Positions 25,287-50,439 are shown, numbered from the stretch's first letter. The stretch: DNA of 52,813 nt from an uncultured Methanosarcinales archaeon (GCA_964454865.1 CAYVTQ010000003.1:1-52813); one strand, 5' to 3'. Numbers and translations: made by a program. Notes: generated by a model not told the origin, from the sequence alone.

Positions 25287-26030
25287 TTATTTCTTAATGC
25301 TATAAACAAGCGCAGAAAGATAATAGCGCACCAATGCAATGTAAGACAGCATTATCAAGCTGGAGAACACGATCCAGTATTGGCGGGAGGAAATCGTGTA
25401 TATGCTGCTTAACAAAACCCCAATTAGGACAATCATGGAATAAGGCAGGATTGTATAAGGGATTCCGGAAAAGCCAAGTTTGAGGCTTTCCCTTATTGCA
25501 GAGATTCTCAGGCTTCTTGTGAAAATAGGGTAAAGTATGCCGGAGAAATAGAGTGACGCGGCTAATATTACAGCCAGGAAAATTATTGCAGCGCCCTGCT
25601 CCATTACGACAAAGCCAAGGATTATTACAGCCAGCACTGACACATTCCAAATTAATTTTACCAGTAAAAATTTTAGTAAGTACTGCCCGGTCATTCTTGC
25701 CTGCGCTGTCAGCGCCCAGATTATGGATTTTGAGAGCGACGAGAAAATCAGCAAAGCCAACAGAAATAATCCGAGAGAGTAGAACAGGAAGTAGTACAAA
25801 TCCTGCGCCTGCCTCGACATTATTTCAAGAGTCGCCTCGTCCAGAAGCTCAAGCCCCGAAGCTGCCAGCTCGTATTTCGCCTTGAGCATTCCAAGCCAGA
25901 ATTCAGCGGCAAGGTACGACAACAAGTAAAAAATGTAGTCTGTCAGCACAATAAATATTATGCTTAAATTTATTTTTTTGAAAGCGCTGATAAGAGCTTC
26001 CCTGTTTAATTTTAGGTATTTGCTGCCCAT
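25287..26030 (-). CDS. Polytopic membrane protein (about 6 TM), last gene of the giant-protein operon
   Basis: ORF track with hydrophobic helices throughout. 18-nt gap after the 1462-aa gene. Confidence 0.6.
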   Translation of the reverse strand: MGSKYLKLNREALISAFKKINLSIIFIVLTDYIFYLLSYLAAEFWLGMLKAKYELAASGLELLDEATLEIMSRQAQDLYYFLFYSLGLFLLALLIFSSLSKSIIWALTAQARMTGQYLLKFLLVKLIWNVSVLAVIILGFVVMEQGAAIIFLAVILAASLYFSGILYPIFTRSLRISAIRESLKLGFSGIPYTILPYSMIVLIGVLLSSIYTISSRQYWIVFSSLIMLSYIALVRYYLSALVYSIKK

Positions 26031-26048: not shown

Positions 26049-29000
26049 CTAAATGCCCCCGGAATACCTTGAGTTGACTTTGGTGTCCTGAGGAGCTGCT
26101 TTAGCTTCCTGCCTTGTTTTTTCTGCTTTTTCCTCCTCGATTGACTTTGCTTTGTCCCCGACTTCCCTGAATGCTGTGCATAATGCATAGTATTTCTCAA
26201 TTCCTTTTAAGTTCCCTCCGGTATAGAACGGGACATCGTCAAACAAAATGCAGGCTTCATCATAATCCAAAGTGTCGGCGAATATTATCGGAGCTGGATT
26301 AGGCTCGTTAGGCTTCATACTGGGGCTGCCATACTGCATGTTCCTCTGCAGCTCGGTGAATTTGTCGTTTTCATTCAGCAATAACGGCCTTTGCAGGAGG
26401 TTTTTTGACCTCAAGCCTATATTGACTCCTACAGTCTTTTTTGCAGTAGGGGGATTTGTCTCTGCCATATTTATCTTGAATGAGATTAAATAGAGGTATT
26501 TATCCACATTTTTGCCCTGATCATCAACAGCAGTATAGGGCTGCTTTGTAGCCTTGATGAAAGCGCCGATATTCGGATAGCCATCAGGAGTTGCTGTGAA
26601 GACAAATCCTTCGTCTGAAGGGGGAAGATCTATTTTCGCCAATTCGCATAATTTTGACTCAAACAAATCCTGCTCCAAAACTATTCCCAAAGCGCTGTTC
26701 TTTTCCATTACCTTCATCCATTCCTTCATCACATCATCCCCTAGGAAATAGGAATATGTATCGCTCAGGAACCTTCCGGTTGGGGCTGATTTTCCCAGTA
26801 TGTCGTCCAGAGCAGCAAAGAATTTCTGCGAGTCCCACTGCCCCCTTGTCAGGAAGTTCCTGCCTTCGGCGTATTTGTCGTGAAAGGTATTCCATGCGGA
26901 TTTTTGATTATCAGTCAATTCTGTTAGCTTGCCATCATCACCGAATTTCTTAGGAGGCTTTCCGTAATTTGGACTGCCCGGAATTAATAAAGTTGGATCG
27001 TGCTGTATTCCTGAAATCTTTATTATTTGATGAGCCTCTCCATCTCGAACTGCACTCATAGTCAAAGTAGCCCTTCCATCAGAGCCCAGCTCGTAATTTG
27101 CATATGTGGGGTCAGTTACTAGTGTATTTGTCTCATCAAAAGCTGATCCCTTTGGCAGCCTTACACTTATAGCCGCAACATAATCATTTCCGCTGGCGTC
27201 CCTTTTCACAGTCCTTGCAACAGACTCTTCTGCTAACACAGTATCACTCCAAAAGCCGTTTGCATCCTGCTTTGGAGGGGTGTTTTTTCCGCTGTAAATT
27301 ATTATTGTTTTTCCCTGGTCAGTCATTTGCTTGACAGCTTTCCCACCCATTACCGCTGTTATTTTCCCATTCGCGAGCAAAACATAATCGTCTTTTGAGC
27401 CTATTTTTGAGAATTTCTTTTTATCGTCTGTTTCTGCTGCAGGAGAAGAATCAAAGTTATTTGATGTTACAGATGTTATTCCAAGTTTGGCGGCTTCTCT
27501 CAAAGCGTCGTCTTTAACAAACTCATCGCCGGGCATCTTTGCATACTCGGCTCCATTCATCTTTATTGACCTTAACATGCCTCTGTCGTCTCTGACATTC
27601 AGATCGACACTTTCAATTTTTGAATAATCAGCAGCGTGATAAAATCTTGCTTTGGGACCAGATTCTATAACTTTGTTTACTCCTGGCTTATATACTTCTG
27701 TTTTTCTTCCTATCTCATTGCCGGCAGAATCTCTCCAAATAGTTTCCAAAGTCATTTGGGCTTCGCTTGAGCTTGGATTATTTTCCAAACCTTTGGCGTT
27801 CTTTATTGTTGATATATACTCTCTTCCCTGAGCAATATGCAGAAAGCTTCTTTCTATTATTGTGTCCTTATCTTCGGATGTTAAGATAGAGATTTGGGCT
27901 AATTTTCCTCCGCCAGGCATATCTACATTAGGAATAAGCTGAAGCGTTGCTTTTCCCTCTTTCAATGGAATTTTATTGCTGCTTCCGTCCCAATTATCCT
28001 TATCAATTTCCTCCGGATTAAGAAGCCTTGCGTCATATGCGAATGATGTTTCAGCAGTTCCATCTTTTTTTGTTAATGTCCTAATACCATCCTTATCAGG
28101 CTTTGAAATAGTTATTGAAGTTATTACCGCATTTTGCGCTGTATCCACCGTCAATACATTCGAGCTGAAATCAGGCTGCTCTCCGGGAGGCTGCGCTGCT
28201 CCCACTACTTGGCCTGGCGCTGATGGAGGGAGCCGAATTCCCCTTATATTGGCCTGCAGCTCCTGATAGCTCTTGGCGCTTGCATCAAATATCATGACAT
28301 GGCCTGGCTTTACAGCCTTAAATTGATTTTTTAATTCAGGAAATCTCGAAGCAAGAGACAGGTATTCTGCTTCTGTCAAGGCAGTTCCCTTATTTGCGCC
28401 TTCAAAGCTGTAATAGATTGTGCCTGATGTTGGATTTGCGATGCCATCTTTCCCCCCGACTTTAACCTGCAATTGGCTAAGCACTCCTTTAAGCTCTGCA
28501 GAAGTCTCAATCCCTTGGGGCTGTCTTTGCTTATCTTTTTCCGCTTCCTTTTCCCTGCGCTGCCTGTCGCGCTCTTGCTTTAGATCGTATTCTGCTTTCT
28601 TTTTATCAATATATTCCTGAACTGCATCCGAATCCTTATTTTTTAAATTAATTAATTCTTCCCGCGTTACATATTTCCTTAGCTCCCTAATCCCGTCTTC
28701 TGTATTTTCCTCTGCAACATTCATAGCCACAGCAGCAAAATCGTCCCCGAATTCATTTTCAAGCTGAGCCATTTTGGCATAATCATTTTTATCAATTCCT
28801 ATCCCTCTTATGTAGGCATCATAATCATCAGGGTCAACTTTATTTTCGCCTGCATATAGTTCTACTATGCCTTCTGTTGTTATTTCGCTGTTAATTGCGC
28901 GATACTGCTGTGCTATCTTATCATTAACGCCATTGGATTCTAATTGTTTCTTGTCCAACCCTTTCAAAAGAGGATTGGGCCATTCTTGAATTGGGGCTTG

Positions 29001-30437
29001 GGCTGCTCCTGACGGCGGGGCTGCTGCTCTTTTTGCCAGCAGGGCTTTGTTTATTGCCTTTGCTGTTTTCTCGCCCACTTTTCCGTCACTTGTTAAAGGA
29101 TTGTTCTGCTCATCCTTATTTTTGCTCTGGAAATCCTTAACAGCAGCGCCTATTTTTTCAGGAGTGCTTAAATCAGCATAGCCAAGCTCTTTAAGCGCTT
29201 CAATTAAATTATTATCAGTGGCAGGTATCGTGCCTGCGCCTGACGGGACTGAAAGCTCTACTGCAGGTTTTCCCGCAGGAGCCTGCTGCTTTGCCTTTGC
29301 CTCAGCCAGCGATTTCGTTAAAGCCTGCAAGTCTGGATGGCTTTTTTTTGTTTCAGCATCAAAAAGCCTATCAACGCTTCCGCCAACACTCCTAAATCCT
29401 ACCGGATTATCGCCATTAAAATAAATTATTCTGCCATCGGCACCAGTATAAAACCTGTCATAAGCATTGCCCCCAATGTTTCCCGGCTTAATTGTAAGGG
29501 TGAATTTAGAAGTCGTTGCGCCTATTTGGACATCAACTGATGGTATGTCTGTAATGATAGCTGCGCCGCCTCCCTGCCCCAGTGGCACTCCATCACCTTG
29601 TTTGGTAGTTGCCGGCCCAACAGCTCCAGCAGATCCTTTTGTAATCTCATTGTTAATAGCAGGATCCAAATTTGGGATTAAATTAACATAGCTTAGAGCT
29701 AAGGCATATTTTTGCTTCTTCTGTTCAGGATCTTGAGTTGCTCTTACTTGCTCTAAATATTTGTTAAAATCATGTTCAAGATTAGCTTTTGCATCAATGC
29801 CTCTATCAATCGCCTTTTTGTGATATTCCATTGCTGTTGCATAATCTTCCTTACCCCTGTAACTAACACCTATATAAGGATATACACCAGGATCATCCCT
29901 AATTTTTAAGGCTTTCTTGTAGAATTCTATTGCTTCATCATATTGTCTTGAATTAAATTTAGAAACCCCAGTTCGAAAATTTAAGTCGTAAGCTTCTTGA
30001 ATTGTTAAAGGAGCGGTTTGTGAGCCGAATAGTATCTGGTTAGCTTGCGCTTGTGTTATTGTTTTGCCATTTATAGAAGCCCTTCCAGATTTAGTTACTT
30101 CAGAGATTTTTTGTGTCAATTCAGCGGGCGATTTCGCAGCCAGCAGACTTTGAATGAGCTTTACATCTTCATCATAAATTCTATCATCACCTTTGAATTC
30201 CGAAGTCCAATCTTTCCTACCTGATTCGCTATTAGGGTACACCTTTACTTCTGGTTTTTCTTTCTCATAATTCCATTGTAAAAATACTTCATCATCAATA
30301 CCCCAGTTACTAAAAACCAGCTTTACAATATCTGAAGCGCCTGTAGTTGTTGTTACTTGTCCACTTGTTGTCTGAGAATATACACTAATCATAATAATAA
30401 AAATACATGCCATAATCGCCAAAATCTTCTTTATCAT
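26049..30437 (-). CDS. Giant secreted protein (1462 aa): Sec signal, TPR, PG-binding-like module, coiled coil
   Basis: N-terminal signal MIKKILAIMACIFIIMISVYS/QT. TPR-like YDEAIEFYKKALKIRDD...YATAMEYHKKAIDRG. LGY...AVKDFQ...DGKVGEKT pattern. KE/RQ-rich coiled coil. Confidence 0.8.
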   Translation of the reverse strand: MIKKILAIMACIFIIMISVYSQTTSGQVTTTTGASDIVKLVFSNWGIDDEVFLQWNYEKEKPEVKVYPNSESGRKDWTSEFKGDDRIYDEDVKLIQSLLAAKSPAELTQKISEVTKSGRASINGKTITQAQANQILFGSQTAPLTIQEAYDLNFRTGVSKFNSRQYDEAIEFYKKALKIRDDPGVYPYIGVSYRGKEDYATAMEYHKKAIDRGIDAKANLEHDFNKYLEQVRATQDPEQKKQKYALALSYVNLIPNLDPAINNEITKGSAGAVGPATTKQGDGVPLGQGGGAAIITDIPSVDVQIGATTSKFTLTIKPGNIGGNAYDRFYTGADGRIIYFNGDNPVGFRSVGGSVDRLFDAETKKSHPDLQALTKSLAEAKAKQQAPAGKPAVELSVPSGAGTIPATDNNLIEALKELGYADLSTPEKIGAAVKDFQSKNKDEQNNPLTSDGKVGEKTAKAINKALLAKRAAAPPSGAAQAPIQEWPNPLLKGLDKKQLESNGVNDKIAQQYRAINSEITTEGIVELYAGENKVDPDDYDAYIRGIGIDKNDYAKMAQLENEFGDDFAAVAMNVAEENTEDGIRELRKYVTREELINLKNKDSDAVQEYIDKKKAEYDLKQERDRQRREKEAEKDKQRQPQGIETSAELKGVLSQLQVKVGGKDGIANPTSGTIYYSFEGANKGTALTEAEYLSLASRFPELKNQFKAVKPGHVMIFDASAKSYQELQANIRGIRLPPSAPGQVVGAAQPPGEQPDFSSNVLTVDTAQNAVITSITISKPDKDGIRTLTKKDGTAETSFAYDARLLNPEEIDKDNWDGSSNKIPLKEGKATLQLIPNVDMPGGGKLAQISILTSEDKDTIIERSFLHIAQGREYISTIKNAKGLENNPSSSEAQMTLETIWRDSAGNEIGRKTEVYKPGVNKVIESGPKARFYHAADYSKIESVDLNVRDDRGMLRSIKMNGAEYAKMPGDEFVKDDALREAAKLGITSVTSNNFDSSPAAETDDKKKFSKIGSKDDYVLLANGKITAVMGGKAVKQMTDQGKTIIIYSGKNTPPKQDANGFWSDTVLAEESVARTVKRDASGNDYVAAISVRLPKGSAFDETNTLVTDPTYANYELGSDGRATLTMSAVRDGEAHQIIKISGIQHDPTLLIPGSPNYGKPPKKFGDDGKLTELTDNQKSAWNTFHDKYAEGRNFLTRGQWDSQKFFAALDDILGKSAPTGRFLSDTYSYFLGDDVMKEWMKVMEKNSALGIVLEQDLFESKLCELAKIDLPPSDEGFVFTATPDGYPNIGAFIKATKQPYTAVDDQGKNVDKYLYLISFKINMAETNPPTAKKTVGVNIGLRSKNLLQRPLLLNENDKFTELQRNMQYGSPSMKPNEPNPAPIIFADTLDYDEACILFDDVPFYTGGNLKGIEKYYALCTAFREVGDKAKSIEEEKAEKTRQEAKAAPQDTKVNSRYSGGI

Positions 30438-30488: not shown

Positions 30489-33400
30489 TCATTCCTCCAA
30501 AATGCCAAGCTGCCTGCAGGGCTCCTGGCTGACCTGCTTGTTCAAGTCACCGAAATTCTGGACCTGTGATTTTGCAAGAGCCGTTGTAGCCGAAATTTTT
30601 GACACAAGCTCCAATGTGAGCTTTATCTGGCATCCGTAATATGCAAAGCCGTGCTCCATGCTCGGGTTGGTGCAGTACTGCCTGCATTGGGAGCGGGATA
30701 TAAGTTCAACTCCGACGTATCCCAACGCAAAAGGATTGAGCAGCACCTGCCTTATCAGCTCCTGATAATGCTTCCAAATCTGGTAGTGGGGCAGCCAGAA
30801 AAATACTTCTCCGACAACATATTTGCATACCTGCTGGTTCTTTATCTGCTCGCAGACAGCAGGATCCATTCCCTGCGCAACATACTGCTCAAGGCATGAG
30901 ACGTATCTGCATTTTAGCTGCATGAACTTGTCTGCATTATATACAATGCCGGGCAGGCAGCCAAACATCATTGAGCCGAGCAGGCTGTTCTGGGGATTCA
31001 TGTACCTGGCAAGGCTGTTGGGAGGATTGACTGTCATTCCCCTTGCTTCTGCTGATTGCTTTTGGGCATCCTTCTGCTCCTGCGTAGCCGGGGTGCACGG
31101 CTCATCAGAGCCTATTATTTTTCCGCCAACACAAATATCAAGCTTATCCAGTTTCATATCCACGGATGCCATATGGGATGCCAGCGGCAATTCATCCAGA
31201 ACATCCAGAATCTTGTTGCCCCAAAGCGTCTTGTCGCATGTCAGGTAAGCGCAGAATTTGCCGAATGTTTTCATTAAGCCGTGGCCCACATCCTGCCCTG
31301 TCTGCTCTGAATGGCATACTGCATTTCTAATAGTCCCTATTTTTTCTTCCAGAGGTATTCCTAAAATCTTGGCTATTCTTGCAGCAGCCGCTTTCGCGTT
31401 TAAGATTTTGGCTATAGTCAATAATGTCTCCATAACCTTGTAGAATGTATTAAACCAAGCGCAGATTTTTTGCGCAAAGAGCATCAGCTTCTTGAACGAT
31501 TCAAGCTTCTTGTTCCACTTCACAATGGAATCCTTTTCCTTCTCAATCTTTTCCCTCATTGCCTTTGCGGGGTCAGGAAGCTCAAACAGGCCCATCTTAA
31601 ACACAACAGCCTCCTCTTCAGGAATACTGTTTACAACATAAGCCTTTGATTGAGTGTCAAGAATTCTGGATTGAATGTTAAGCGTGCACACAATATCCAT
31701 ATATTCAGTTTCAGGCATCTCCATCTTGTTGAAGGTAAGAACAACAACAGGCTCTATGGTGCCGGGCGTGTCTCTTATAACAACTGCATTGCTTACATAG
31801 CTTTGCGTTCCTGAAGCAGAGCATTTAGGATCCTTTACCTTGATTGAAACAGTCTTCAAGGTGCCTGCGTCTTTTGTGGCATCCGCCAGAAGATTGCCAT
31901 TAGGCTCAAGCTTTACTGTGCAGTAAGACTTCATGCCGTTTGGAATGACCAAAACTGCTCCCCTGTCAATATTTTCCGGAGAGCATTTTTTCTCCTTAAT
32001 CTTCCAATAATCAACCTGCCCCGAAACTGCCCCACTAACTGAAATTTCTTTTTCAGCTATTCCTGCATTTCCAGCCGCGTCAGTAAATTTAAATTCAATG
32101 GTGTGTTGTTCGCCAGGATTGCTGAAGGAAATATCCCACTTGCACAGCTTATAGCCGATATAATCCTTCTCCTGGGCATCTGAGCATGTTATAGTTCTCT
32201 TATCATTTGCAAACGGGGTGAAATCGGCTTCTGCTGTCAGGGGATTTTCATCCTTGACATAAGCTATAACATTCACTGTGCCTGTCTTGATGAATCCTGC
32301 TTCTGCGCCGGTGTTTTTTATTATTATATCATTATCAGATTCAACGATTGGACTGACAGTGTCAATTACTACATTCACTTCCTTATTGCCAGTTAGTGGG
32401 TTTCCAAGAATGTCTTTTGTGCCGGAATCCAGCGTCAATTTTCCAGGGATTAATACAACATCCTGCCATACGCATTCAAACTTCTGATCTTTTTTAGCGC
32501 ATGCCGGCGCCTGGGTTATCTGGGGCTGGTTCAGCTTGATTTCAGAGCCTGCCAATCCTGTCGCCTCAGTGAAAATAATCTTTATATTGTTAGAGGAAGA
32601 TTTTGCGTATTGTTTTGCCTGATCCTGCTGATTATTTATTGAAATTGAATCAACTGCCAATTCCTTGTCTTCCTGGGCAAGGCTTAATGACAATTCCTTG
32701 AATCCTTTGCCCGCATCTTCCAGCTTGTTGCCGTATTTATCCTCTGCCTTTATGGAAAATTTTAACGGGCTGCTCCATTGCGTTATTGCTATGCCTTCCC
32801 ATTTGCAGAGAGTGTTGCTTCCAGATGCGGAGCATTCATTCGGCGCTCTTTCATCGGCAATTGAAGGGTTAATGTCCTTGAATATTCCCTTTACAGTGTC
32901 TGCCTTTACATCTTCGTCTTTTGTCCCTGAAAATTCAACATGGATTGAAAGCCCCGCCACTTCCCTGCCGGCAGGCGGCCTTTGCTTGATCTCTATGCCT
33001 CCTTTAAAAATTTTAAATGTTCCAACTACAGAAGGAGGATTTCTGTCCACGTTAATAGGAATTCGCTCAGTTACAGTGTGGCCGACCCAGTCTGACAAGA
33101 CTACAATTATTGCATTTGGGCCGTTGCTCAAGGTTTCTTTATCCCCTCCAAATTTTTCAGGCAGCTCATAAGGGTCCGATTTTGCTTCTGCGCATGCTCC
33201 AAGATCTGAAAGCTTCACTTCTCCAATCAGATTTTCGGGCCTAGCTGCATCATCCTTGAAAAATAAAATATTTTTCAGCCCCGAGCATTTTCCTCTGAAT
33301 TTGGCACAATCTTCCGGCTTTGTGCTGCCCGGGCATGGATTGTCTATTGCCTCATAAGATATCCTGTATTTTTTATTTGCAATCTCGGATATTGCAGCGG

Positions 33401-33863
33401 GCTTTTTTACGAATTCGGGCCTGTTAATGTCGAATGTGTATTCTTTTTCCTCCCTACCAGCCTCTTGTTTCCTGTCTTTATCCTTGTAAAGGACTGCAGT
33501 TGCCTCATGGGTTGCTAATGCAGCACTTTCCCAGACATATGCTGCTCCGGCAGCGGCTCCTTCGGGATAAGTATATGTGCATTGGGAATTTGTTGTTGGA
33601 AAATCCTTGCATTCTGTAAATCCCTTGTTTGAATTGAGCATTGACACCCTGTCCTTAAGGTCAGCAACAGGAGCAAAATCCAGCAAAACAACAAAAACTA
33701 TCCTTTCGTTTTCCGCAAGATAATTTTCAACGCCGCTTTTCTCTCCCTTGGCATAAAATTTTGTTATGCTTTCAGCATAGACGCTGAGAGAGTTTAGAGG
33801 CAGCATTAACACTAACAGAATCATGAAGCATGCGATTGTCTTCAAATATATTTTTTCTGTCAT
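30489..33863 (-). CDS. Giant secreted protein (1124 aa): Sec signal, Ig-like beta-rich region, Cys-rich helical C-terminal module
   Basis: Signal ...LPLNSLSVYA/ES. Paired cysteines throughout. About 15 Cys in the last roughly 340 aa. ATGA overlap with the upstream gene. Confidence 0.8.
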   Translation of the reverse strand: MTEKIYLKTIACFMILLVLMLPLNSLSVYAESITKFYAKGEKSGVENYLAENERIVFVVLLDFAPVADLKDRVSMLNSNKGFTECKDFPTTNSQCTYTYPEGAAAGAAYVWESAALATHEATAVLYKDKDRKQEAGREEKEYTFDINRPEFVKKPAAISEIANKKYRISYEAIDNPCPGSTKPEDCAKFRGKCSGLKNILFFKDDAARPENLIGEVKLSDLGACAEAKSDPYELPEKFGGDKETLSNGPNAIIVVLSDWVGHTVTERIPINVDRNPPSVVGTFKIFKGGIEIKQRPPAGREVAGLSIHVEFSGTKDEDVKADTVKGIFKDINPSIADERAPNECSASGSNTLCKWEGIAITQWSSPLKFSIKAEDKYGNKLEDAGKGFKELSLSLAQEDKELAVDSISINNQQDQAKQYAKSSSNNIKIIFTEATGLAGSEIKLNQPQITQAPACAKKDQKFECVWQDVVLIPGKLTLDSGTKDILGNPLTGNKEVNVVIDTVSPIVESDNDIIIKNTGAEAGFIKTGTVNVIAYVKDENPLTAEADFTPFANDKRTITCSDAQEKDYIGYKLCKWDISFSNPGEQHTIEFKFTDAAGNAGIAEKEISVSGAVSGQVDYWKIKEKKCSPENIDRGAVLVIPNGMKSYCTVKLEPNGNLLADATKDAGTLKTVSIKVKDPKCSASGTQSYVSNAVVIRDTPGTIEPVVVLTFNKMEMPETEYMDIVCTLNIQSRILDTQSKAYVVNSIPEEEAVVFKMGLFELPDPAKAMREKIEKEKDSIVKWNKKLESFKKLMLFAQKICAWFNTFYKVMETLLTIAKILNAKAAAARIAKILGIPLEEKIGTIRNAVCHSEQTGQDVGHGLMKTFGKFCAYLTCDKTLWGNKILDVLDELPLASHMASVDMKLDKLDICVGGKIIGSDEPCTPATQEQKDAQKQSAEARGMTVNPPNSLARYMNPQNSLLGSMMFGCLPGIVYNADKFMQLKCRYVSCLEQYVAQGMDPAVCEQIKNQQVCKYVVGEVFFWLPHYQIWKHYQELIRQVLLNPFALGYVGVELISRSQCRQYCTNPSMEHGFAYYGCQIKLTLELVSKISATTALAKSQVQNFGDLNKQVSQEPCRQLGILEE

Positions 33864-36619
33864 TTTATGTCTGGCGTGAAATAGCTCCTGTAAAACCTTG
33901 AATACTCGTCCAGCTTCTCAAGCTGGTTTAGATGGTCAATATCTTTAGGGCTGTTCACATCGTCATCTATGCCAAGGTCGATTGCATAAAATATTATATC
34001 TCCCTGCTGGTAAAGCGCAGGATTTGTGAAAAACACATTTTCAATGTTAACTCCACCTTCAGGAAAAATGGCGTCTTTAGCCTCTCCAAGAGGCTTATAG
34101 CTGCGCTCATCGGCATCTTGATCCTGGATAATCTCGCCGTACATGCAGCTTGTCGGCTTGTTTGTCTGAGCTGCGATAAATGCCTCATCGCCTGAAAATG
34201 AGGAAGGGCTCATTATAGCAGCGGAAAAATCCTCCTTGTCATCAGCATTGAAATCATTTGTTCTCAACGCCACAAGCTGCTCTACCCATTTTCCATCGGC
34301 GCCGAGGCACCTTACAGAGTAATCATAAGAATTGGGTATTCCGGGTATGCCGCTAGTTAAATGGGTGTATCCTTCCTCCGGAAATGGAATATAGCTGCCG
34401 TCGACAGTTCTTGATGCCAGCTTGTACTCGCATTTGGTTTTCGCATTTGTTTCTATTGCAAGGTAGCCCTGCTTTGTCCTGAAGCTTACAGGAGTTTTTG
34501 AGGATACAACTAAGTTTCCGGGCGCAGGCTGGGCTGAGGAAATGTCCATAGGGCCTATTTCAATATACTCCTGCTTCTTCGGATCAAGGCATTTCACGCT
34601 GTATTTATGGCTGCCCGGCTGCAGGCCTTTAAGCTTGCCCGCATGCACCAATGCAGAAGCGTCTTCGCCAAAATCTATGGCAGGAATTGTTATTTTTTTG
34701 CTGAAGCCTGAAAAGAGATTTAAAGAAGGCACTTCCATCTTGCTTTCAGGAATTACAACGCGGTCGTTCAAAAGCAGATTTATTGTTAAGTCATATGTGC
34801 CGTGCGCAAGAGTAATATTCGGAGGATTTGAGTAGTCTTTGCCTGTAAAAATTCCGAATGCGGTAAAAGGCTCCTCCCCAGCGTCCCCTTTTCTTGTAAG
34901 CGACAAAATTGCCTGCTCTTTCTCATTCAGCTCTTCTGCCTTGTACTTGTCAAAATCCCAGTAATCGCCGTATTTGGATTTTATAAAGAGTTTTTTATAC
35001 ACCTTGAATCTTTTCTCGACCAGTGGCTCAAGCCTGAATTCAATTTCGGCCCCGGGATTGGAGTCGGCATCATAATTCTTGGTCAGTCCGAGAAACCTCT
35101 CTGATTTGACTGTGACAGTGCCGCCGAAAGTGCCGTGGGGAAACTTATATTTTAAAATGCCGTTTTCATCTGTCGAGCCAATCGCGCAGCTTATCTCTGT
35201 TACAGTGTAGTATATTTCGGCAGAAGGAATGGGATTATTAGGGTATGTTGCATTGGCTACTTTTATTTCAACTTCGGGCCCGTCTCCTTCCGCGCTGCAT
35301 AAAGTCAGCCCTTCAAAAAAGCCTGATTCCCGGGAGTAGGCATCTGCAACGGCAGCTCCTGTCGGAATTGTCGGAGGCACTCTGATGCCAAGATGCTCCG
35401 GCACGTTGTCGACAATTTTGCTTTGCAGAAAGAAATTGAAGATGTATCCTTCATCGCCGAAAATAAATGCTGACGGATCGGTTATTGTGACTAAAACAGG
35501 ATACTGCACATCATAGGGATATTCTGATTTTTTTATTGGGAAGCCGGGGATTATGCTTGTTATTGATTCCTCCCTGCAGACAGGCTTGTTTCCCTTGCAA
35601 ACTTCAAATTGGAAAGGCTGCCTTGGATTCAGGTCATCCGGAAAATACCCGAACCTCACTTCATAATTTTCAACAGAAGCCGAGGTTATAGGCAAGGTAG
35701 TAAGCTTGTCATGGATTCCTTTTTCAATTTGGTCTTCAGTATCTAGGAGTTCATATCTTTTTGAATCCAACACCTGAAGAGCTTGAACATAAGAGCTTAA
35801 TATTTTTTTAAACTGCTGTTTTGCTGTTTCTTTGATTGTTATATCTGAGCCAAAGCCAAATTTAAGGGAATTCACAGGAGGCATAATTTTATCGGACGAA
35901 TAAACTGTAATCAAAGTCCTTGTGTATTTCTCAAGATACCTGTGGTCGGATTGGTTTTTTGCTATTGCAAACGCCAAATCATACATTTTTTTGATGCTGA
36001 AAGGCACCCTGACAAAAAATTTCCCAATCTCGAATTTTTGCCCCCCTCTTTCTGCCTTTATTGGATAGCCCACTTCAATGATTGTGTCCTCGTCAGTAAT
36101 GGTGACTTTTGGCGCCGGCTTTTCTTTTGCTTCTATAATAAACCCCTGCCTGGAGAATTCGTCAAAATCATTAATGCAGACATTTATCTTTTCTGCAATG
36201 TAATCTTCCAGCTCGCCCCCTATAGTTTTAAACCCGCGCCTTGAATCAAGTCCTGGCATTTGAAGGCGTGGCTGGCTGCCTCCTGCATAAAACCAGTATG
36301 CGACTTTGTGCTGCACTGAGTTTGGAAAAAATTCAAATGGATCAGGAGGAGTTATATATCCTCCGTTCCAGCCTATTTCCTCATAGCCCATTACAGCAGT
36401 ATCGTAAATGCACCTGTCAACAAAGTCCTGTATCGGGTTGAATTCAGCGGGAATTTCCTGCGCTTCAATTATGCTTTCTTCTATTTTTATTCCTGTCTGC
36501 ACTTTTGTTGTTGTGTAGAAATAAAATCCCCCTATAGCTATTATGAGGATGCCGACAATCAGGAATAGTGATGTTGCCTGCGCTTTTCTTGAAATTTTAT
36601 GCACTGCAATATTACTCAT
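33860..36619 (-). CDS. Large surface protein (919 aa) with type IV pilin-like (class III) N-terminal signal/anchor
   Basis: N-terminus MSNIAVHKISRKA/QATSLFLIVGILIIAIGGFYFY. CarboxypepD_reg-like stretch AIGSTDENGILKYKFPHGTFGGTVTVKSERF. Start is 2 nt after the RHH stop. Confidence 0.8.
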   Translation of the reverse strand: MSNIAVHKISRKAQATSLFLIVGILIIAIGGFYFYTTTKVQTGIKIEESIIEAQEIPAEFNPIQDFVDRCIYDTAVMGYEEIGWNGGYITPPDPFEFFPNSVQHKVAYWFYAGGSQPRLQMPGLDSRRGFKTIGGELEDYIAEKINVCINDFDEFSRQGFIIEAKEKPAPKVTITDEDTIIEVGYPIKAERGGQKFEIGKFFVRVPFSIKKMYDLAFAIAKNQSDHRYLEKYTRTLITVYSSDKIMPPVNSLKFGFGSDITIKETAKQQFKKILSSYVQALQVLDSKRYELLDTEDQIEKGIHDKLTTLPITSASVENYEVRFGYFPDDLNPRQPFQFEVCKGNKPVCREESITSIIPGFPIKKSEYPYDVQYPVLVTITDPSAFIFGDEGYIFNFFLQSKIVDNVPEHLGIRVPPTIPTGAAVADAYSRESGFFEGLTLCSAEGDGPEVEIKVANATYPNNPIPSAEIYYTVTEISCAIGSTDENGILKYKFPHGTFGGTVTVKSERFLGLTKNYDADSNPGAEIEFRLEPLVEKRFKVYKKLFIKSKYGDYWDFDKYKAEELNEKEQAILSLTRKGDAGEEPFTAFGIFTGKDYSNPPNITLAHGTYDLTINLLLNDRVVIPESKMEVPSLNLFSGFSKKITIPAIDFGEDASALVHAGKLKGLQPGSHKYSVKCLDPKKQEYIEIGPMDISSAQPAPGNLVVSSKTPVSFRTKQGYLAIETNAKTKCEYKLASRTVDGSYIPFPEEGYTHLTSGIPGIPNSYDYSVRCLGADGKWVEQLVALRTNDFNADDKEDFSAAIMSPSSFSGDEAFIAAQTNKPTSCMYGEIIQDQDADERSYKPLGEAKDAIFPEGGVNIENVFFTNPALYQQGDIIFYAIDLGIDDDVNSPKDIDHLNQLEKLDEYSRFYRSYFTPDIK

Positions 36620-36621
36620 TT

Positions 36622-36786
36622 TTATTTCTCCTTGTTCAGCTCTTTTTGTATTAATTCAAGATCATAGAGCTTCTGCTCCATCAGCTCACGAGCCAGCATG
36701 GACTTTTTCTTTCCAAGCCGGGCAGAAATTTTCTCCAGCAATTCATTAATTTCCTTAGATACAGTTATCCTTATTTGAATGCTCAT
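36622..36786 (-). CDS. Ribbon-helix-helix (CopG/Arc/MetJ-like) DNA-binding protein, 54 aa
   Basis: Manual translation, below the ORF-track size cut-off: MSIQIRITVSKEINELLEKISARLGKKKSMLARELMEQKLYDLELIQKELNKEK. Beta-strand then two helices. GGAG 6 nt upstream. Confidence 0.7.
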   Translation of the reverse strand: MSIQIRITVSKEINELLEKISARLGKKKSMLARELMEQKLYDLELIQKELNKEK

Positions 36787-36807
36787 TTAGTCTCCAATAT
36801 AACTAAA

Positions 36808-36884
36808 TTTATGCTTAATTATGTATACTTTAAGTACTACTATATAAAATTTGTTATTTAAAAGTTAGAATTTTATGCTTAATT
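36808..36884 (-). promoter_or_regulatory. Promoter/operator region of the RHH operon: two identical 13-mers flanking a TATA-like box
   Basis: TTTATGCTTAATT occurs at 36808-36820 and 36872-36884. The second is part of the inverted repeat TTTTATGCT..AGCATAAAA. TATA-like TTTTATATAGT on the minus strand lies at about 36838-36848. Confidence 0.35.
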
Positions 36885-37035
36885 TAGCATAAAAAAAGTA
36901 TTTTTTAGGTATAAAATTGAGACTAAAAATTTATAAATATACTTTATTTATACTGAAAAATGGATAAATATTTACCGGATATTTTGCCAAAATCAATTCA
37001 AGAGATAAATATTGTATAAGGGATTTAGCTGGCTT

Positions 37036-37137
37036 TAATCCTCCTTGCCGTTGATTGAAATAAATTCGAGGCGGAATTTTAATGGCAGTAAAAATTCCGC
37101 CGAGTGTTTCTTGGCCGCGAAGCGACGGAAAGAATTG
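37036..37137 (+). mobile_element. MITE-like structured repeat, family 2, copy 3 (internally deleted)
   Basis: Retains the left end (TAATCCTCCTTGCCG), the GGCGGAATTTT-N9-AAAAATTCCGCC hairpin and the right end. Lacks the GCGAGGCG...CGCCTCGC hairpin. Confidence 0.6.
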
Positions 37138-37389
37138 CAGCAACTTCAAAGATCTAAAAGTCCCTGTGCAGCAAAGAAGTTACTCATGGAAGGGAATACA
37201 TTGTAATAGCCTCCAGATAAATATAAATCCCAATAATATCCAAGAATTAAATAAATTCAAATCCGCAAGCTTTATAAAGTAGTGATTAATTCCAAATTGA
37301 ATGTATAAGTATCCTTCTTTAGATAAAGCACTATAAATTTATAGAATCTTTATACTAGGGAGGGATAACTATGCCTTTTCACGCTAAAT

Positions 37390-37596
37390 GCCCTGGTAGT
37401 GTAGCCTGGAACAGCGGAAAAGGACGTGATGCTGCAGGAACCATCATGGAGCCCTGTCAACAACTTTGGCAGACCGGCTCCGACTCGGGTTCAAAACAAC
37501 CTTTTCTTTCGCCTCCTCTGCGAGTCGGCAAAGAAAAGCTTGACAAAAAATAAGGATTTGCTGCGCAAATCGTTGGTGGAAGTCCCGACCAGGGCG
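37390..37596 (+). tRNA. tRNA-Asp(GUC) with three introns (D-loop about 30 nt, anticodon loop 15 nt, T-loop about 87 nt)
   Basis: Acceptor GCCCTGG/CCAGGGC plus discriminator G. D-stem GTGT/TCAT. Anticodon stem GAGCC/GGCTC with loop CTGTCAA, interrupted after the loop (37461-37475). T-stem TCGGG (37485-89) and CCCGA (37584-88) separated by TTCAAA plus a long insert. Exon sequence resembles archaeal tRNA-Asp. Intron borders are approximate. Confidence 0.7.
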
Positions 37597-37614
37597 CTCT
37601 TGCTCAATCATCAC

Positions 37615-37737
37615 GGGCCGGTAGCTCAGCCTGGTAAAATTTGCCTTTGGGCAATAGAGCATCTGTCGGGAATATACAAATATTCACGGGTGTGACTTTT
37701 AATCAGGTGGTCGCGAGTTCGAATCTCGTCCGGCCCA
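37615..37737 (+). tRNA. tRNA-Lys(UUU) with two non-canonical introns (D-loop 20 nt, anticodon-stem 29 nt)
   Basis: Removing 37637-37656 and 37666-37694 gives a canonical 74-nt cloverleaf: GGGCCGG TA GCTC AGCCTGGTA GAGC A TCTGA CTTTTAA TCAGG TGGTC GCGAG TTCGAAT CTCGT CCGGCCC A. No encoded CCA. Confidence 0.85.
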
Positions 37738-47412: not shown

Positions 47413-47439
47413 GCCATTTACCTACTTGGAGTAGTGAAA

Positions 47440-48822
47440 ATGGCAGAAACACTAGATCAAGAAATAGATGATAGTATGCAATTTGGGGGAAATTACCAGC
47501 CTGAAGTAGCTGATTTTATAGGACCGTCACAGCACAGTGCACCTTCAAGATGGAAGCGAGCTATGTGGGATGCAGGAGCTATAATAGGAATTCCATCTAT
47601 AATAACTATTTTAGGGTTAGGATGTGGACATAATACTCCTTTAGCCCCTTCAAACGGAGCCACAGACGACGGCAGGCCTAAAAGCGGATATGTACAGCCG
47701 CCAAAGCATTTTGGGCAGAAAGATGGAGTTAATAATGTAGGTTATGGGGCTCCGCCTGACAATGGCTTAGCTGAAATTGTGCAGAAGATTGTACAGCCTA
47801 TGGGAATAAACTTCGGCTCAGACGGCAGAGGGCAGTATATTGATTTTAAGGGAAATAAAATTTATGACAATGCAACTGACGCTGAAAGGGCGGCATTTGC
47901 CAAAACAAAAGGGTTGATGAAGCCTGTAGCTGCAGATCAAGACAATCTTCAGGTTATAGCAGATGATATGGCAAATAAGCTGGGAATGAGATGGCTGCCT
48001 TATGATTTTGACCAGAACAGGAGAGTTGATTTGGAAGACTTCTTTGCATTTGCATTGGCGTTTGGATTAAAAAAAGGCCAAGAGAAAGAGGGTTATAACC
48101 CAAGATTAGACTTAAACAAAAATGATGCCGTAGATTTAGAGGATTTTTTTGCATTTGCATTGGGATTTGCAAAAGGGGGACAGAGATATATGCAAGGTGT
48201 TAAGTTTTCTCCAACAATAGGTGGCGTAGGGGAGTTCGAATTTCCGACCGTTGCCGGGGATACTTATACTTCCGGATTGTATGATGCAAATGGCAATCCG
48301 CTGATAGGCTCTGACGGCAACCCTATTTCTCTCCAGCAGAGGGCATCCAAAAATGCTGTAGCCCAGGACAATAGAGTTTCATTTGACTTGAGCAAAATGC
48401 AAGGCCAGAGGATATATGCGGGAGTTGTTAGGACTGACAAAGATGGGGATGATATTGAAGGCAGAATGGAAGGGATGGTGGCGCCGGTGTTTTATGGCGA
48501 TGCGTCACTACAAAAAATACAAAAGGATGGTGAGGGTTGGTATCAATTTACAATAAATATTCCCAAAAAAACTCGTGTGTTTGCTTATGTTGAAACTGAA
48601 GATAGGGATGATATTAAATTTAGGATTGAAGATAATGGAATAACCCATATAGCTGGGGGTACTAAGCGTATACAGGATAGGAATGGAGATAGGAGGCTTT
48701 ACAGATTAGATATTACAGACTATGTTAAGGAAGGAACGTCAACTGTGAAATTTCGAGAAGAAGTAGGAAGATCGTTTTCAGTGACATACGCCAGTTCAGA
48801 GAACATAAGACTTTCAAGGTAA
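47440..48822 (+). CDS. Membrane-anchored extracellular protein with dockerin-like duplicated Ca-binding segment
   Basis: TM and lipobox-like AIIGIPSIITILGLGCG. DFDQNRRVDLEDFFAFALAFG and DLNKNDAVDLEDFFAFALGFA fit D-x-[DN]-x-N-x-x-V-D-x-x-D. Start taken as the ATG rather than the track GTG at 47434. Confidence 0.7.
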   Translation: MAETLDQEIDDSMQFGGNYQPEVADFIGPSQHSAPSRWKRAMWDAGAIIGIPSIITILGLGCGHNTPLAPSNGATDDGRPKSGYVQPPKHFGQKDGVNNVGYGAPPDNGLAEIVQKIVQPMGINFGSDGRGQYIDFKGNKIYDNATDAERAAFAKTKGLMKPVAADQDNLQVIADDMANKLGMRWLPYDFDQNRRVDLEDFFAFALAFGLKKGQEKEGYNPRLDLNKNDAVDLEDFFAFALGFAKGGQRYMQGVKFSPTIGGVGEFEFPTVAGDTYTSGLYDANGNPLIGSDGNPISLQQRASKNAVAQDNRVSFDLSKMQGQRIYAGVVRTDKDGDDIEGRMEGMVAPVFYGDASLQKIQKDGEGWYQFTINIPKKTRVFAYVETEDRDDIKFRIEDNGITHIAGGTKRIQDRNGDRRLYRLDITDYVKEGTSTVKFREEVGRSFSVTYASSENIRLSR

Positions 48823-48825
48823 CAG

Positions 48826-50439
48826 TTAAGTTTTTATCACTATAATTTCAAATGTATCTCCTCCTATCATTCCGCCTGAATCAGTTACAGATACTTTAAA
48901 AGTTGCTCTAACTCCTTCTTGAGCACTTGATATTCCATCACAGGTAACAAATCCATTATTAATATCACATCTTATAGAGGTCGAAGTTGTTTCTGTAAGC
49001 TTATCAACTCTGTATATCATTCTTTCAGGTCTATCCTCTCTATCATTAGCAAATTCCCATATTTTCTTAATTAATAAATTAGTATCATCAGAGTCTAATG
49101 TAAACTTGTCTTGATTCCCAAAGTCAATCCTCGGCGCCGTATTCCCTCCAGGCTGTATCTGCCCAGCTTTTCTTGCCTTATGTTCTTCTTTATCGCCTAA
49201 TTGCCTTATCAGCCTTTGGTTTGTTGCAGGGTCTTCATCGCCTACTTCCATTCTCTTTCCTTTCAAGTCTCCGGGTATTTTTTGAATGTCGTCAGGCAAT
49301 GGCTCTCCGCGTTTGCCGTCATCCTGCTCAAGCCTTTTAGGATGATCCTTGCCGGTCTTTATTGAGGCTCCGCCTGTAGTTGTAATCAGTCTCGGAACGG
49401 CAACTGCCTTCAGCTGCTTCCTGCACTTGTCGTCTATTATCTTGGCAAGCTGGTAAGCCACCCTTTTCTCTTCGCTTAAGGCGTTAAAACTCCAGACAAG
49501 CATTGGATCTGACTTGACAAGCACATCCGTGTCGGCATCGCCGCCTTCAACCTTCTCAAGATACTGGCTCAAGTCATTAAAGCAGTCTGTCTTGCTTAAG
49601 GTTTCTATGAACTTGACTTCCTTCGCCTCTATGCCATTCTTTGGCTTTATGAAGAACTCAACTTTTGTGGTTTCCGGGAAGCATGTGCTTACCCTGAGCC
49701 TTACTTCAATGTTGCTCTTTCCCTCAGCATCTTTCTCCTGCGCATTTTGTATATTCTCCCTTTCCTTTACATGGCAGTCATCGTCTTGCTTTTGAGTGCC
49801 GCAGGCAATATTCAATAATTCATCCAAATCATCTCCCTGCACTATCTCAGGCACAGTGGTGCATTCCACCTGCTCGCAATAAGGGATTATGTTTACCCCA
49901 TCTTTTCCCAATCCTTCCATCTCTATCTTTACAGTCCTGCTGGAGCTTGTATCAAAGCAGAGATTGTATGGGTAATCCACGCTTAAGCCCTGAAGATTGT
50001 ATGCGGCAGCCATTTTGCCGCCGTTCATCACAAAGAAATTCTTGCCTGTGTTGGATTCAATTTCGCTTTTTATTAGGGGCTCGTCTTTTAAGGAATCAAA
50101 AATGATTTTTTTAGCTTCTGCATCTGTCTTTATCTTGTTTAAGTTCACAAAATAAGCCCGGTCTCCGCATGGGACTTTAAAGGTAAACTTATCCCTTGAC
50201 TTGTAGCCCTGCGGGCCGGCCAACAACGAAAGCCTGTTCGGCAGATCCCCCATGAATTCTATATTCTTCAGGTCGCAGGAGCCTTCTCCAAAGAAGGAAG
50301 TTGTTTTGGCGAAGAAATAGAACAATGAGCCTATGACTAAAACTGCCATTATGACTATAACGAGGAAAGAAGGGGCTATTTCAAGGGCTTTTCTGCTAAG
50401 TTTTTTAATCATTCTTCCGGAGTTTACTATTTTATGCAT
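48826..50439 (-). CDS. Surface protein (537 aa) with type IV pilin-like N-terminus and C-terminal cadherin/Ig-like domain
   Basis: N-terminus ...MIKKLSRKA/LEIAPSFLVIVIMAVLVIGSLFYFF. C-terminal ...GVRATFKVSVTDSGGMIGGDTFEIIVI. The start may instead be the internal Met at 50412. Confidence 0.7.
   Translation of the reverse strand: MHKIVNSGRMIKKLSRKALEIAPSFLVIVIMAVLVIGSLFYFFAKTTSFFGEGSCDLKNIEFMGDLPNRLSLLAGPQGYKSRDKFTFKVPCGDRAYFVNLNKIKTDAEAKKIIFDSLKDEPLIKSEIESNTGKNFFVMNGGKMAAAYNLQGLSVDYPYNLCFDTSSSRTVKIEMEGLGKDGVNIIPYCEQVECTTVPEIVQGDDLDELLNIACGTQKQDDDCHVKERENIQNAQEKDAEGKSNIEVRLRVSTCFPETTKVEFFIKPKNGIEAKEVKFIETLSKTDCFNDLSQYLEKVEGGDADTDVLVKSDPMLVWSFNALSEEKRVAYQLAKIIDDKCRKQLKAVAVPRLITTTGGASIKTGKDHPKRLEQDDGKRGEPLPDDIQKIPGDLKGKRMEVGDEDPATNQRLIRQLGDKEEHKARKAGQIQPGGNTAPRIDFGNQDKFTLDSDDTNLLIKKIWEFANDREDRPERMIYRVDKLTETTSTSIRCDINNGFVTCDGISSAQEGVRATFKVSVTDSGGMIGGDTFEIIVIKT

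Follow-up and report, generated by a model that had tools for sequence, protein, structure and literature searches.

The stretch analysed here, a piece of archaeal DNA of 52,813 nucleotides with a GC content of about 42% that we call the window, carries two genes for large proteins with prepilin-like N-termini, and it is these two proteins, the genes that accompany them and the way in which they may be held at the cell surface that are considered below. Reading of the open reading frames (ORFs) gave a protein of 919 residues at 33860-36619 and one of 537 residues at 48826-50439, both on the minus strand. A six-frame scan of the window for [KR][GA] followed by an 18-residue hydrophobic stretch returned six matches, and only in these two proteins was the match N-terminal on a large ORF. 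The existence of two ORFs with such N-termini, from which the original prediction had started, was confirmed in both ways. The two loci flank a block made up of rpoH, split rpoB, rpoA'/A'', nusA-KH, S12 and S7, which is an archaeal core chromosome setting. Because the homologues bear Woesearchaeota or Nanoarchaeia names, the source organism is, as judged from its sequence, a DPANN archaeon of the Woesearchaeota/Nanoarchaeia group (Woesearchaeota-like). The parts of the two proteins are as follows.

36581-36619, minus strand: leader of the 919-residue protein, MSNIAVHKISRKA, with predicted class III cleavage after Ala13
36506-36580, minus strand: hydrophobic N-terminal helix of the mature 919-residue protein, QATSLFLIVGILIIAIGGFYFYTTT, from hydropathy and the AlphaFold helix at residues 11-41
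35390-36448, minus strand: conserved ectodomain of the 919-residue protein, residues 58-410, from the alignment and a pLDDT (predicted local distance difference test) of about 90
33860-35389, minus strand: C-terminal part of the 919-residue protein, with prealbumin/CnaB-like beta-sandwiches at residues ~445-650, an insert at residues 654-847 and a conserved C-terminal tail
50386-50439, minus strand: leader of the 537-residue protein, MHKIVNSGRMIKKLSRKA, of 9 or 18 residues and ending RK
48826-50385, minus strand: mature 537-residue protein, beginning with the helix LEIAPSFLVIVIMAVLVIGSLFYFF, followed by a short linker, a Cys-rich alpha/beta region and beta-sandwich domains

The N-terminus of the 919-residue protein reads MSNIAVHKISRKA/QATSLFLIVGILIIAIGGFYFY and that of the 537-residue protein MHKIVNSGRMIKKLSRKA/LEIAPSFLVIVIMAVLVIGSLFYFF, where the slash marks the predicted cleavage. 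In both, a hydrophobic stretch of about 20 residues directly follows the predicted site, as seen from hydropathy and from AlphaFold models, proposed along with the original prediction, which place the N-terminal helices at residues 11-41 and 22-49, respectively. For the family of the 919-residue protein an N-terminal logo was built from 148 distant representatives clustered at 50% identity and anchored on the Gln at +1. Lys or Arg was observed at -3 in 131 of the 148 and at -2 in 141, and position -1 was Gly in 89, Ala in 45 and Ser in 13, that is, one of these three small residues in 147/148. After the junction, +3 was Thr or Ser (143/148), +5 Phe or Tyr (144/148), +9 Gly (137/148) and +21 Tyr (94/148). 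The family start consensus is thus [KR][KR]-[GAS] before the predicted site and Q-[IVL]-[T/S]-x-[F/Y]-x3-G after it, and the consensus of the helix start is Q-I-T-I-F-I-I-I-G. The 919-residue protein itself has one residue more between Gln +1 and the conserved Phe (QATSLF vs QITIF), while its closest relative, P0091, with 42% identity, has the normal spacing. Its leader is 13 residues long; in the family the median is 7 and the range 3-33, and the leaders end in K/R-K/R. A MAFFT alignment of 45 members, made independently and with identities of about 25%, has only six invariant columns, and Gln +1 is one of them. The 919-residue protein and 129 of 153 family members also pass a FlaFind-type rule, reportedly that of Szabo et al. 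2007, which is said to read [KRDE][GA][ALIFQMVED][ILMVTAS]x3. Since Gly, Ala or Ser at -1 and an invariant Gln at +1 are kept across very deep divergence, the junction carries the signature of a peptidase-recognition site, and the alignments indicate that this pattern is under selection and not due to chance. The Gln at +1 has been shown to be essential to EppA processing in Methanococcus maripaludis (PMC4390842).

The 537-residue protein belongs to a small family. Ten relatives are 37-51% identical to it, residues 150-345 form a conserved core rich in Cys, and a metagenome scan for the family gave 3 loci only. In 8/8 homologues with an intact start, [KR]K-G is followed by Phe or Ile, then Glu or Gln and a hydrophobic stretch, and none of these eight has a later AxA-type Sec cleavage site. 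The window protein has Ala at -1 and Leu at +1, where the homologues have Phe or Ile, so there is no Gln +1. Translation may really begin at Met10 (MIKKLSRKA), which would agree with the starts of the homologues. From these features a class III signal on the 537-residue protein is possible, with the odds falling a little below even.

The original prediction held that the two N-termini resemble each other beyond the generic class III pattern and share a module running from SRKA through a hydrophobic helix to FYF. This likeness did not hold up. BLASTP of the two proteins aligned only a 40-residue N-terminus (residues 2-38 of the 919-residue protein and 7-46 of the 537-residue protein) with E=0.016 for a single pair, and hhalign of the two family profiles found nothing. 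The Ser of SRKA (-4) and the FYF vary inside each family and are conserved in neither, and triple-aromatic runs occur in 5/35 hydrophobic segments of window proteins, including the first helix of the 535-residue protein encoded upstream of the 537-residue gene. With these results it is quite probable that the match of SRKA and FYF is a coincidence between two N-termini that target the membrane independently of each other, in a proteome rich in Lys, Phe and Tyr, and that share nothing specific. What speaks against coincidence pure and simple is that a basic-basic-small residue before the helix is conserved independently in both families. Because of this, the two families are, as far as their alignments tell, alike in signal class and not in module or ancestry.

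A word-indexed search with the 919-residue protein returned four relatives only. A profile search over 1.84 billion cluster representatives (50%-identity clusters) gave 8,519, 5,850 and 1,675 clusters at E<=1e-3, 1e-10 and 1e-30, respectively; most of these matches are 650-800 residues long and the alignments start at residue 2-4. A further homology search using the 45-sequence alignment found no additional proteins. A protein of this size with a pilin-type N-terminus had been regarded as unusual cargo for a pilus-like system, but Woesearchaeota have thousands of proteins of the 919-residue type. One genome per GTDB species was also scanned with a degenerate DNA pattern for G-Q-[IV]-T-x-F-I-I-x-G, and this gave at least 120 loci, nearly all in metagenome-assembled genomes (MAGs) of Woesearchaeota, Nanoarchaeia or Pacearchaeota, where about 5 chance matches are expected from the information content of the pattern. 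The locus counts given below rest on these listed loci, at least 120 in number, examined as blocks of about 8 kb. Many loci with the Woesearchaeota-type motif sit in third-party annotation (TPA) assemblies titled 'uncultured Methanosarcinales archaeon', and their gene content suggests that these titles are wrong or placeholders. Among the matches listed, 101 of 122 motif-bearing ORFs score above 60 bits against the family profile, and the ORF sizes group at about 250-300, 320-450, 620-725 and 775-850 residues. The short forms align to profile positions 3-240 only; therefore the constant part of the family is the signal, the helix and about 200 residues of ectodomain, to which the long forms add C-terminal domains. 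These first ~200 residues of the ectodomain are the family-defining N-domain, found also in stand-alone relatives of about 250 residues. By sequence, then, the 919-residue protein is among the long members of a DPANN-specific family of very large size, defined by the KGQ signal and the ~200-residue N-domain, and the residues C70, G87, C148, E230 and Y369 of its ectodomain are invariant. A viral origin of the family was rejected, as the viral scan gave a single chance match, inside a phage terminase gene.

Prepilin peptidase and pilus machinery are present in this lineage. At locus L044, on a 509-kb contig of a Nanoarchaeia MAG, a Peptidase_A24 match was found (E=5.8e-10, 40 bits against a cut-off of 26.5) in a protein that has the motifs DIKTKEVPN and GGADTK and that NCBI names 'A24 family peptidase', and its gene lies 2.5 kb from a short family member starting MSKRGQ-VTLFIIIG. 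At locus L121 (1-8000, PKTL01000080.1, Woesearchaeota BM511) there are a T2SSE ATPase (E=1.3e-33), two T2SSF platform genes and a 162-residue pilin, MFRRKGQ-AAMEFLMTYGWAILVV, with the classical Glu at +5, which NCBI annotates as hypothetical. Downstream of these, Memo precedes a family member that starts MKKKGQ-VTFFIIIG and has at least 1019 residues, about 1 kb from the machinery, all on one strand. The true pilin at L121 uses the same KGQ junction as the family of the 919-residue protein. Because the junction is conserved and because a true pilin of the lineage has the same one, a class III signal on the 919-residue protein is likely from its sequence. 'System 1' filaments, with two platform genes and EppA, are present in some DPANN (10.64898/2026.04.22.720090), and an earlier census described nanoarchaeal ATPases with pilins that 'could not be identified' (PMC4858521). 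The family of the 919-residue protein may supply the pilin-like substrates that were not found for these nanoarchaeal ATPases.

The AlphaFold model of the 919-residue protein, built with 45 sequences, has a pLDDT of 74.8. It consists of a helix (residues 11-41), a low-confidence linker (42-57), a confident alpha/beta region (58-400), beta-sandwiches (445-650) and a low-confidence insert (654-847) that is specific to the protein of the window. Foldseek of this model against the PDB matched the beta-sandwiches only (carboxypeptidase regulatory domain, CnaB and BcpA; best E=3e-4), and the N-domain, searched as part of the full model, had no PDB match. The model of the 537-residue protein (pLDDT 70.6) has a helix at residues 22-49, a low-confidence linker at 45-53, an alpha/beta region and beta-sandwiches, and Foldseek gave generic beta-sandwich matches only. 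A sequence search of the PDB found nothing for either family. The ectodomains have conserved Cys pairs and, in the models, beta-sandwich domains of the adhesin/Ig type. A helix of about 30 residues, a flexible linker and globular domains, as modelled, fit tethered cargo and not fibre subunits.

The gene of the 919-residue protein is the second in a cassette in which a ribbon-helix-helix (RHH)-like ORF of 54 residues, the 919-residue gene, genes for proteins of 1124 and 1462 residues and a gene for a membrane protein of 247 residues follow one another. Apart from the 919-residue gene itself, these are:

36625-36786, minus strand: RHH-like ORF of 54 residues, whose stop lies 3 nt before the start of the 919-residue gene
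30489-33863, minus strand: 1124-residue partner with a Sec-type signal (..LNSLSVYA/ES) and 32 Cys, overlapping the 919-residue gene by 4 nt
26049-30437, minus strand: 1462-residue secreted protein with a Sec-type signal and two TPR repeats at residues ~155-221, the third large gene of the cassette
25287-26030, minus strand: 247-residue polytopic membrane protein, the last gene of the cassette

The same gene order with homologous partners was observed at L001, in tandem copies, and at L002, and homologous partners of the 1124-residue type come after family genes at L001, L007, L014, L015, L027, L030 and others. At the loci listed, 74 of 96 evaluable family genes have a large ORF with a hydrophobic N-terminus within 200 nt downstream (median -3 nt). 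These downstream ORFs have a Sec-like N-terminus and a median size of at least 777 residues, many being cut by the end of the locus; 37 of them belong to the family of the 1124-residue protein, and 21 loci have a 247-like membrane protein. Pfam and NCBIfam had no relevant match for the partner proteins. A sequence search of the PDB gave nothing for the 1124-residue protein and only TPR repeats for the 1462-residue protein, and there is a weak match (E=1.6e-5) between the C-terminal part of the latter and the third gene in the cassette at L001. In at least 15 loci a homologue of the 247-residue protein closes the cassette, a position that also immediately precedes the next one. The 247-residue protein was considered as a peptidase and rejected, since twelve members of its family have no invariant polar residue among them, and for the same reason a structural role is more probable for it than an enzymatic one. 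Genomes carry several paralogous cassettes in addition to a core copy linked to PCNA. In at least 13 loci of Woesearchaeota MAGs (including L012, L023, L025, L026, L029, L034, L047, L066, L074, L093, L116 and L125), PCNA is followed in fixed synteny by a short form of about 250 residues and a multi-spanning protein of about 1280 residues, which suggests from gene order that the PCNA-linked pair is the core, single-copy version. Another subfamily sits after the gene for PAC2 (proteasome assembly chaperone). From the PCNA and PAC2 synteny it follows that part of the family would be a core, vertically inherited gene pair.

The 54-residue ORF is RHH-like in sequence and has no Pfam match. Gene calling also picks it up on two further assemblies, those of Logan for SRR12113431 and SRR12113385, on which the genes of the window are present too. 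At L054 a homologue (phmmer E=1.8e-19) lies directly upstream of a family gene that is 30% identical to the 919-residue protein. Because its stop lies 3 nt before the 919-residue start, it is a candidate for the regulator and first gene of the cassette. Between this ORF and rpoH, at 36790-37690, there is a gap of about 0.9 kb with no convincing ORF, tRNA or Rfam match, which is unusually long for a compact DPANN genome; Rfam gave no match over the whole window.

Our explanation, to which we give a rough probability of 55%, is that a Woesearchaeota-like DPANN archaeon exports both proteins to its surface by way of a class III signal and that they serve as cargo or anchor and not as fibre-forming pilins. 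We infer cleavage, topology, physical interaction with the partners and function as follows. The basic leader would stay in the cytoplasm and a peptidase of the A24 family (PibD/EppA type) would cut after the small residue, RKA/Q in the 919-residue protein and RKA/L in the 537-residue protein. The hydrophobic helix of about 25 residues would then keep the large ectodomain at the membrane through a flexible linker, and it might also pass the protein to a type IV filament machine. The 919-residue protein would be an adaptor, tethered to the membrane, on which a giant secreted partner is displayed, with adhesion or contact with a host as the probable purpose, and it would work as a unit with the translationally coupled Sec-exported protein of 1124 residues, then that of 1462 residues, and the 247-residue membrane protein. 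Since the coupling to the giant Sec-exported protein is tight, the two may form a pair of adaptor plus adhesin or an envelope pair.

The original prediction favoured a different role, as cargo of a type IV pilus-like system such as tip adhesins or pseudopilins. In such a role the two would be true parts of a type IV filament, minor or tip pilins with the helix in the pilus, and the 1124-residue partner would act as a tip adhesin like PilY1. The class III-type junction is what such proteins would have, and the bacterial minor-pilin/PilY1 tip complex likewise pairs a pilin-type protein with a large Sec-dependent one. Large PilY-like proteins have also been noted in archaeal clade 1 loci (PMC4858521). 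At L121 the genes for the ATPase, the platform proteins and the pilin are followed, about 1 kb further on and in the same orientation, by the family member, and in the model the order of elements after the linker (helix, loop with helix, four-stranded sheet, Cys70-Cys148 pair) would be compatible with a pilin-like head. However, the modelled helix has about 30 residues and leads into a low-confidence linker of variable sequence, and is not a continuous alpha-1 of about 50 residues packed on a head, and no pilin or pseudopilin is among the top 50 Foldseek PDB matches. A phmmer re-screen of the loci for ATPase and peptidase found no copies beyond those at L121 and L044, and one adjacency each in about 120 blocks of 8 kb is what chance would give for genomes of about 1 Mb; therefore genomic linkage is absent. 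Nor does a tip pilin go well with several paralogous cassettes in a genome and a PCNA-linked core copy, and we regard this role as improbable. Taken together, a helix that is short, a linker that varies in sequence and the missing linkage to assembly genes lead us to prefer tethered cargo over fibre-forming pilins.

Several results weigh against class III export of these proteins. As the original prediction had itself stated, the window of 52.8 kb contains no gene for an A24 peptidase, a secretion ATPase or a platform protein. Of about 120 related loci, one has pilus machinery near the family and one the peptidase. The class III and pilin models of Pfam and NCBIfam match neither protein, and the isolated N-termini gave no match even at E<=10 to PF04021 (Class_IIIsignal), PF07790 (Pilin_N) or the NCBIfam archaeal pilin/flagellin N-terminal models; this says little, because the canonical KGQ pilin of L121, used as a control, was missed as well. 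None of the 11 members of the 537-residue family passes the FlaFind-type rule, because their +2 is Glu or Gln. The claim that both N-termini fit the class III pattern is supported for the 919-residue protein, where the junction is conserved family-wide, and in weaker form for the 537-residue protein, whose family keeps KKG. L127, the one locus of the metagenome scan for the latter family in which an N-terminus is present, shows no basic-Gly leader or clear start. Finally, among the matches listed, 101 of the 122 motif ORFs that carry the QITIFIIIG-type helix belong to one ectodomain family, and a family-specific transmembrane interaction motif would also explain this restriction.

This last point leads to the main alternative, that the N-termini are uncleaved signal-anchors of type II topology with no prepilin peptidase involved. 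The basic residues would then be the positive-inside signal, the small residue and Gln a helix cap, and the conserved Thr, Phe and Gly a motif for transmembrane packing, for example against the 247-residue protein. Besides the family-specific helix motif, the failure of the 537-residue family under the FlaFind-type rule and the missing linkage to pilus genes, the conserved polytopic membrane partner in the cassette and models that show a plain helix with a linker fit such anchors. What an anchor does not require is the near-absolute Gly, Ala or Ser at -1 with the invariant Gln +1 among relatives that are about 25% identical. Nor does it call for the KGQ junction in a bona fide pilin of the same lineage, or for a basic-basic-Gly junction kept in a second, unrelated family, that of the 537-residue protein. 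We therefore consider uncleaved anchors rather unlikely, if less so than tip pilins, and retain export through a class III signal as the better explanation.

The gene of the 537-residue protein has its own neighbours, which are:

47434-48822, plus strand: convergent gene for a 462-residue protein with two dockerin/EF-hand-like repeats, DxNxDxxVDxxDFF (DxNxDxxVDxxDFFxFA), below the Pfam threshold
50469-52076, minus strand: gene for the 535-residue protein with at least 12 transmembrane segments, ending 29 nt upstream of the 537-residue gene on the same strand

The tail-to-tail pairing is repeated at L005, where a homologue of 502 residues faces a convergent gene for 295 residues (E=1e-31; L005 11512-12399, minus strand), and this conserved pairing hints at a cohesin-dockerin-like contact. 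Around the homologue, L005 (1-18482) encodes an integrase, a NACHT nucleoside triphosphatase (NTPase) of 1649 residues, an N6/N4 methyltransferase, helix-turn-helix (HTH) regulators, NADAR and PRTase-CE, and it looks like a defence or mobile island, unlike the core-chromosome setting in the window. The 535-residue protein was considered as a platform protein or peptidase and rejected, as it has no Pfam match and is not conserved beside the homologues of the 537-residue protein. Elsewhere in the window, at 1-2739 on the minus strand, there is a SufB/SufD-type gene for iron-sulphur (FeS) assembly that is split by intein sequence with a LAGLIDADG homing endonuclease; its ORF has two Hint-type regions and extends past the start of the window.

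The prevailing view of DPANN archaea is that they live in attachment to other cells, and their large surface proteins, in Woesearchaeota, are mostly annotated 'hypothetical'. What is gained here is a marker, a family of thousands of clusters that can be recognised by KGQ-ITIFIIIG and the N-domain and that also indicates its partner genes, so that candidates for attachment or envelope proteins can be listed and a link to the prepilin peptidase put to the test. The family, its N-domain and the cassette match no Pfam or NCBIfam model, and no description of them was found in the literature searched. Class III signals on large non-pilin proteins are already known, from the Sulfolobus bindosome (10.64898/2026.04.22.720090; PMC4858521). 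The earlier view of these two proteins is thereby corrected, from exotic pilins or carriers of a shared module to common cargo-type proteins with the same class of signal. It is plausible that the cassette is a module for host attachment rather than the source of a pilus fibre subunit. Going further, the KGQ protein, the giant Sec partner and the membrane protein, in fast-diverging tandem copies plus the PCNA copy, could be an undescribed surface system of Woesearchaeota and Nanoarchaeia in which the type IV filament machine, or just its peptidase, is re-used to mount giant adhesins or envelope proteins. If true, the cassette would be the attachment apparatus of host-dependent archaea, but we think this extended proposal has perhaps one chance in four.

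Among the closest known systems are the class III signals cut by EppA (Methanococcus maripaludis Epd pilins; DUF361 / Pfam Class_IIIsignal), which share with the family of the 919-residue protein the basic leader, Gly or Ala at -1, Gln at +1, Ser or Thr at +3 and the helix. The Woesearchaeota pilin of L121 (RKGQ-AAMEF), beside its ATPase and two platform genes, is a canonical pilin of this type. EppA substrates have Glu at +5 (DUF361 motif Q-x-S-x-E-x-x-x-L), whereas the family has Phe or Tyr there (144/148) and Gly at +9, and EppA-type pilins are 60-160 residues long, whereas family members have 250-1000 residues and are encoded outside pilus loci. The 537-residue family differs from these substrates in having Phe, Ile or Leu at +1 and Glu or Gln at +2. 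A type IV pilin or pseudopilin has an alpha-1 of about 50 residues on a beta-sheet head, an arrangement that neither the 919- nor the 537-residue model shows. Minor pilins with PilY1, and modular pilins such as GspK and Streptococcus sanguinis PilB/PilC, likewise combine a pilin-type N-terminus with extra domains and go with a Sec-dependent non-pilin partner of more than 1000 residues, but here no similarity of fold or sequence was found, the predicted linker breaks the arrangement of alpha-1 and head, and linkage to an assembly machine is lacking. The SlaA/SlaB S-layers, with a canopy and a membrane-anchored stalk, resemble the cassette as an operon of an anchored protein and a very large secreted protein rich in beta-sandwiches, and one subfamily here is likewise a single-copy gene pair in housekeeping synteny beside PCNA. 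In the present case, however, the anchor is an N-terminal helix with a prepilin-like junction instead of a C-terminal one, the genomes have several divergent cassettes in tandem, and no sequence similarity to SlaA/SlaB was seen. The cargo of the Sulfolobales bindosome (GlcS, AraS and TreS, processed by PibD) differs in its substrate-binding-protein fold, which Pfam, PDB and Foldseek did not find here, and in the ABC transporter, which is beside neither gene; here there are instead a giant Sec-exported partner and a small polytopic membrane protein, and the organism is one of the DPANN and not of the Thermoproteota. Nevertheless, bindosome proteins, like those described here, carry a large non-pilin ectodomain on a class III signal, a helix and a linker, and their genes, as here, stand apart from the filament machinery and beside those of their functional partners.

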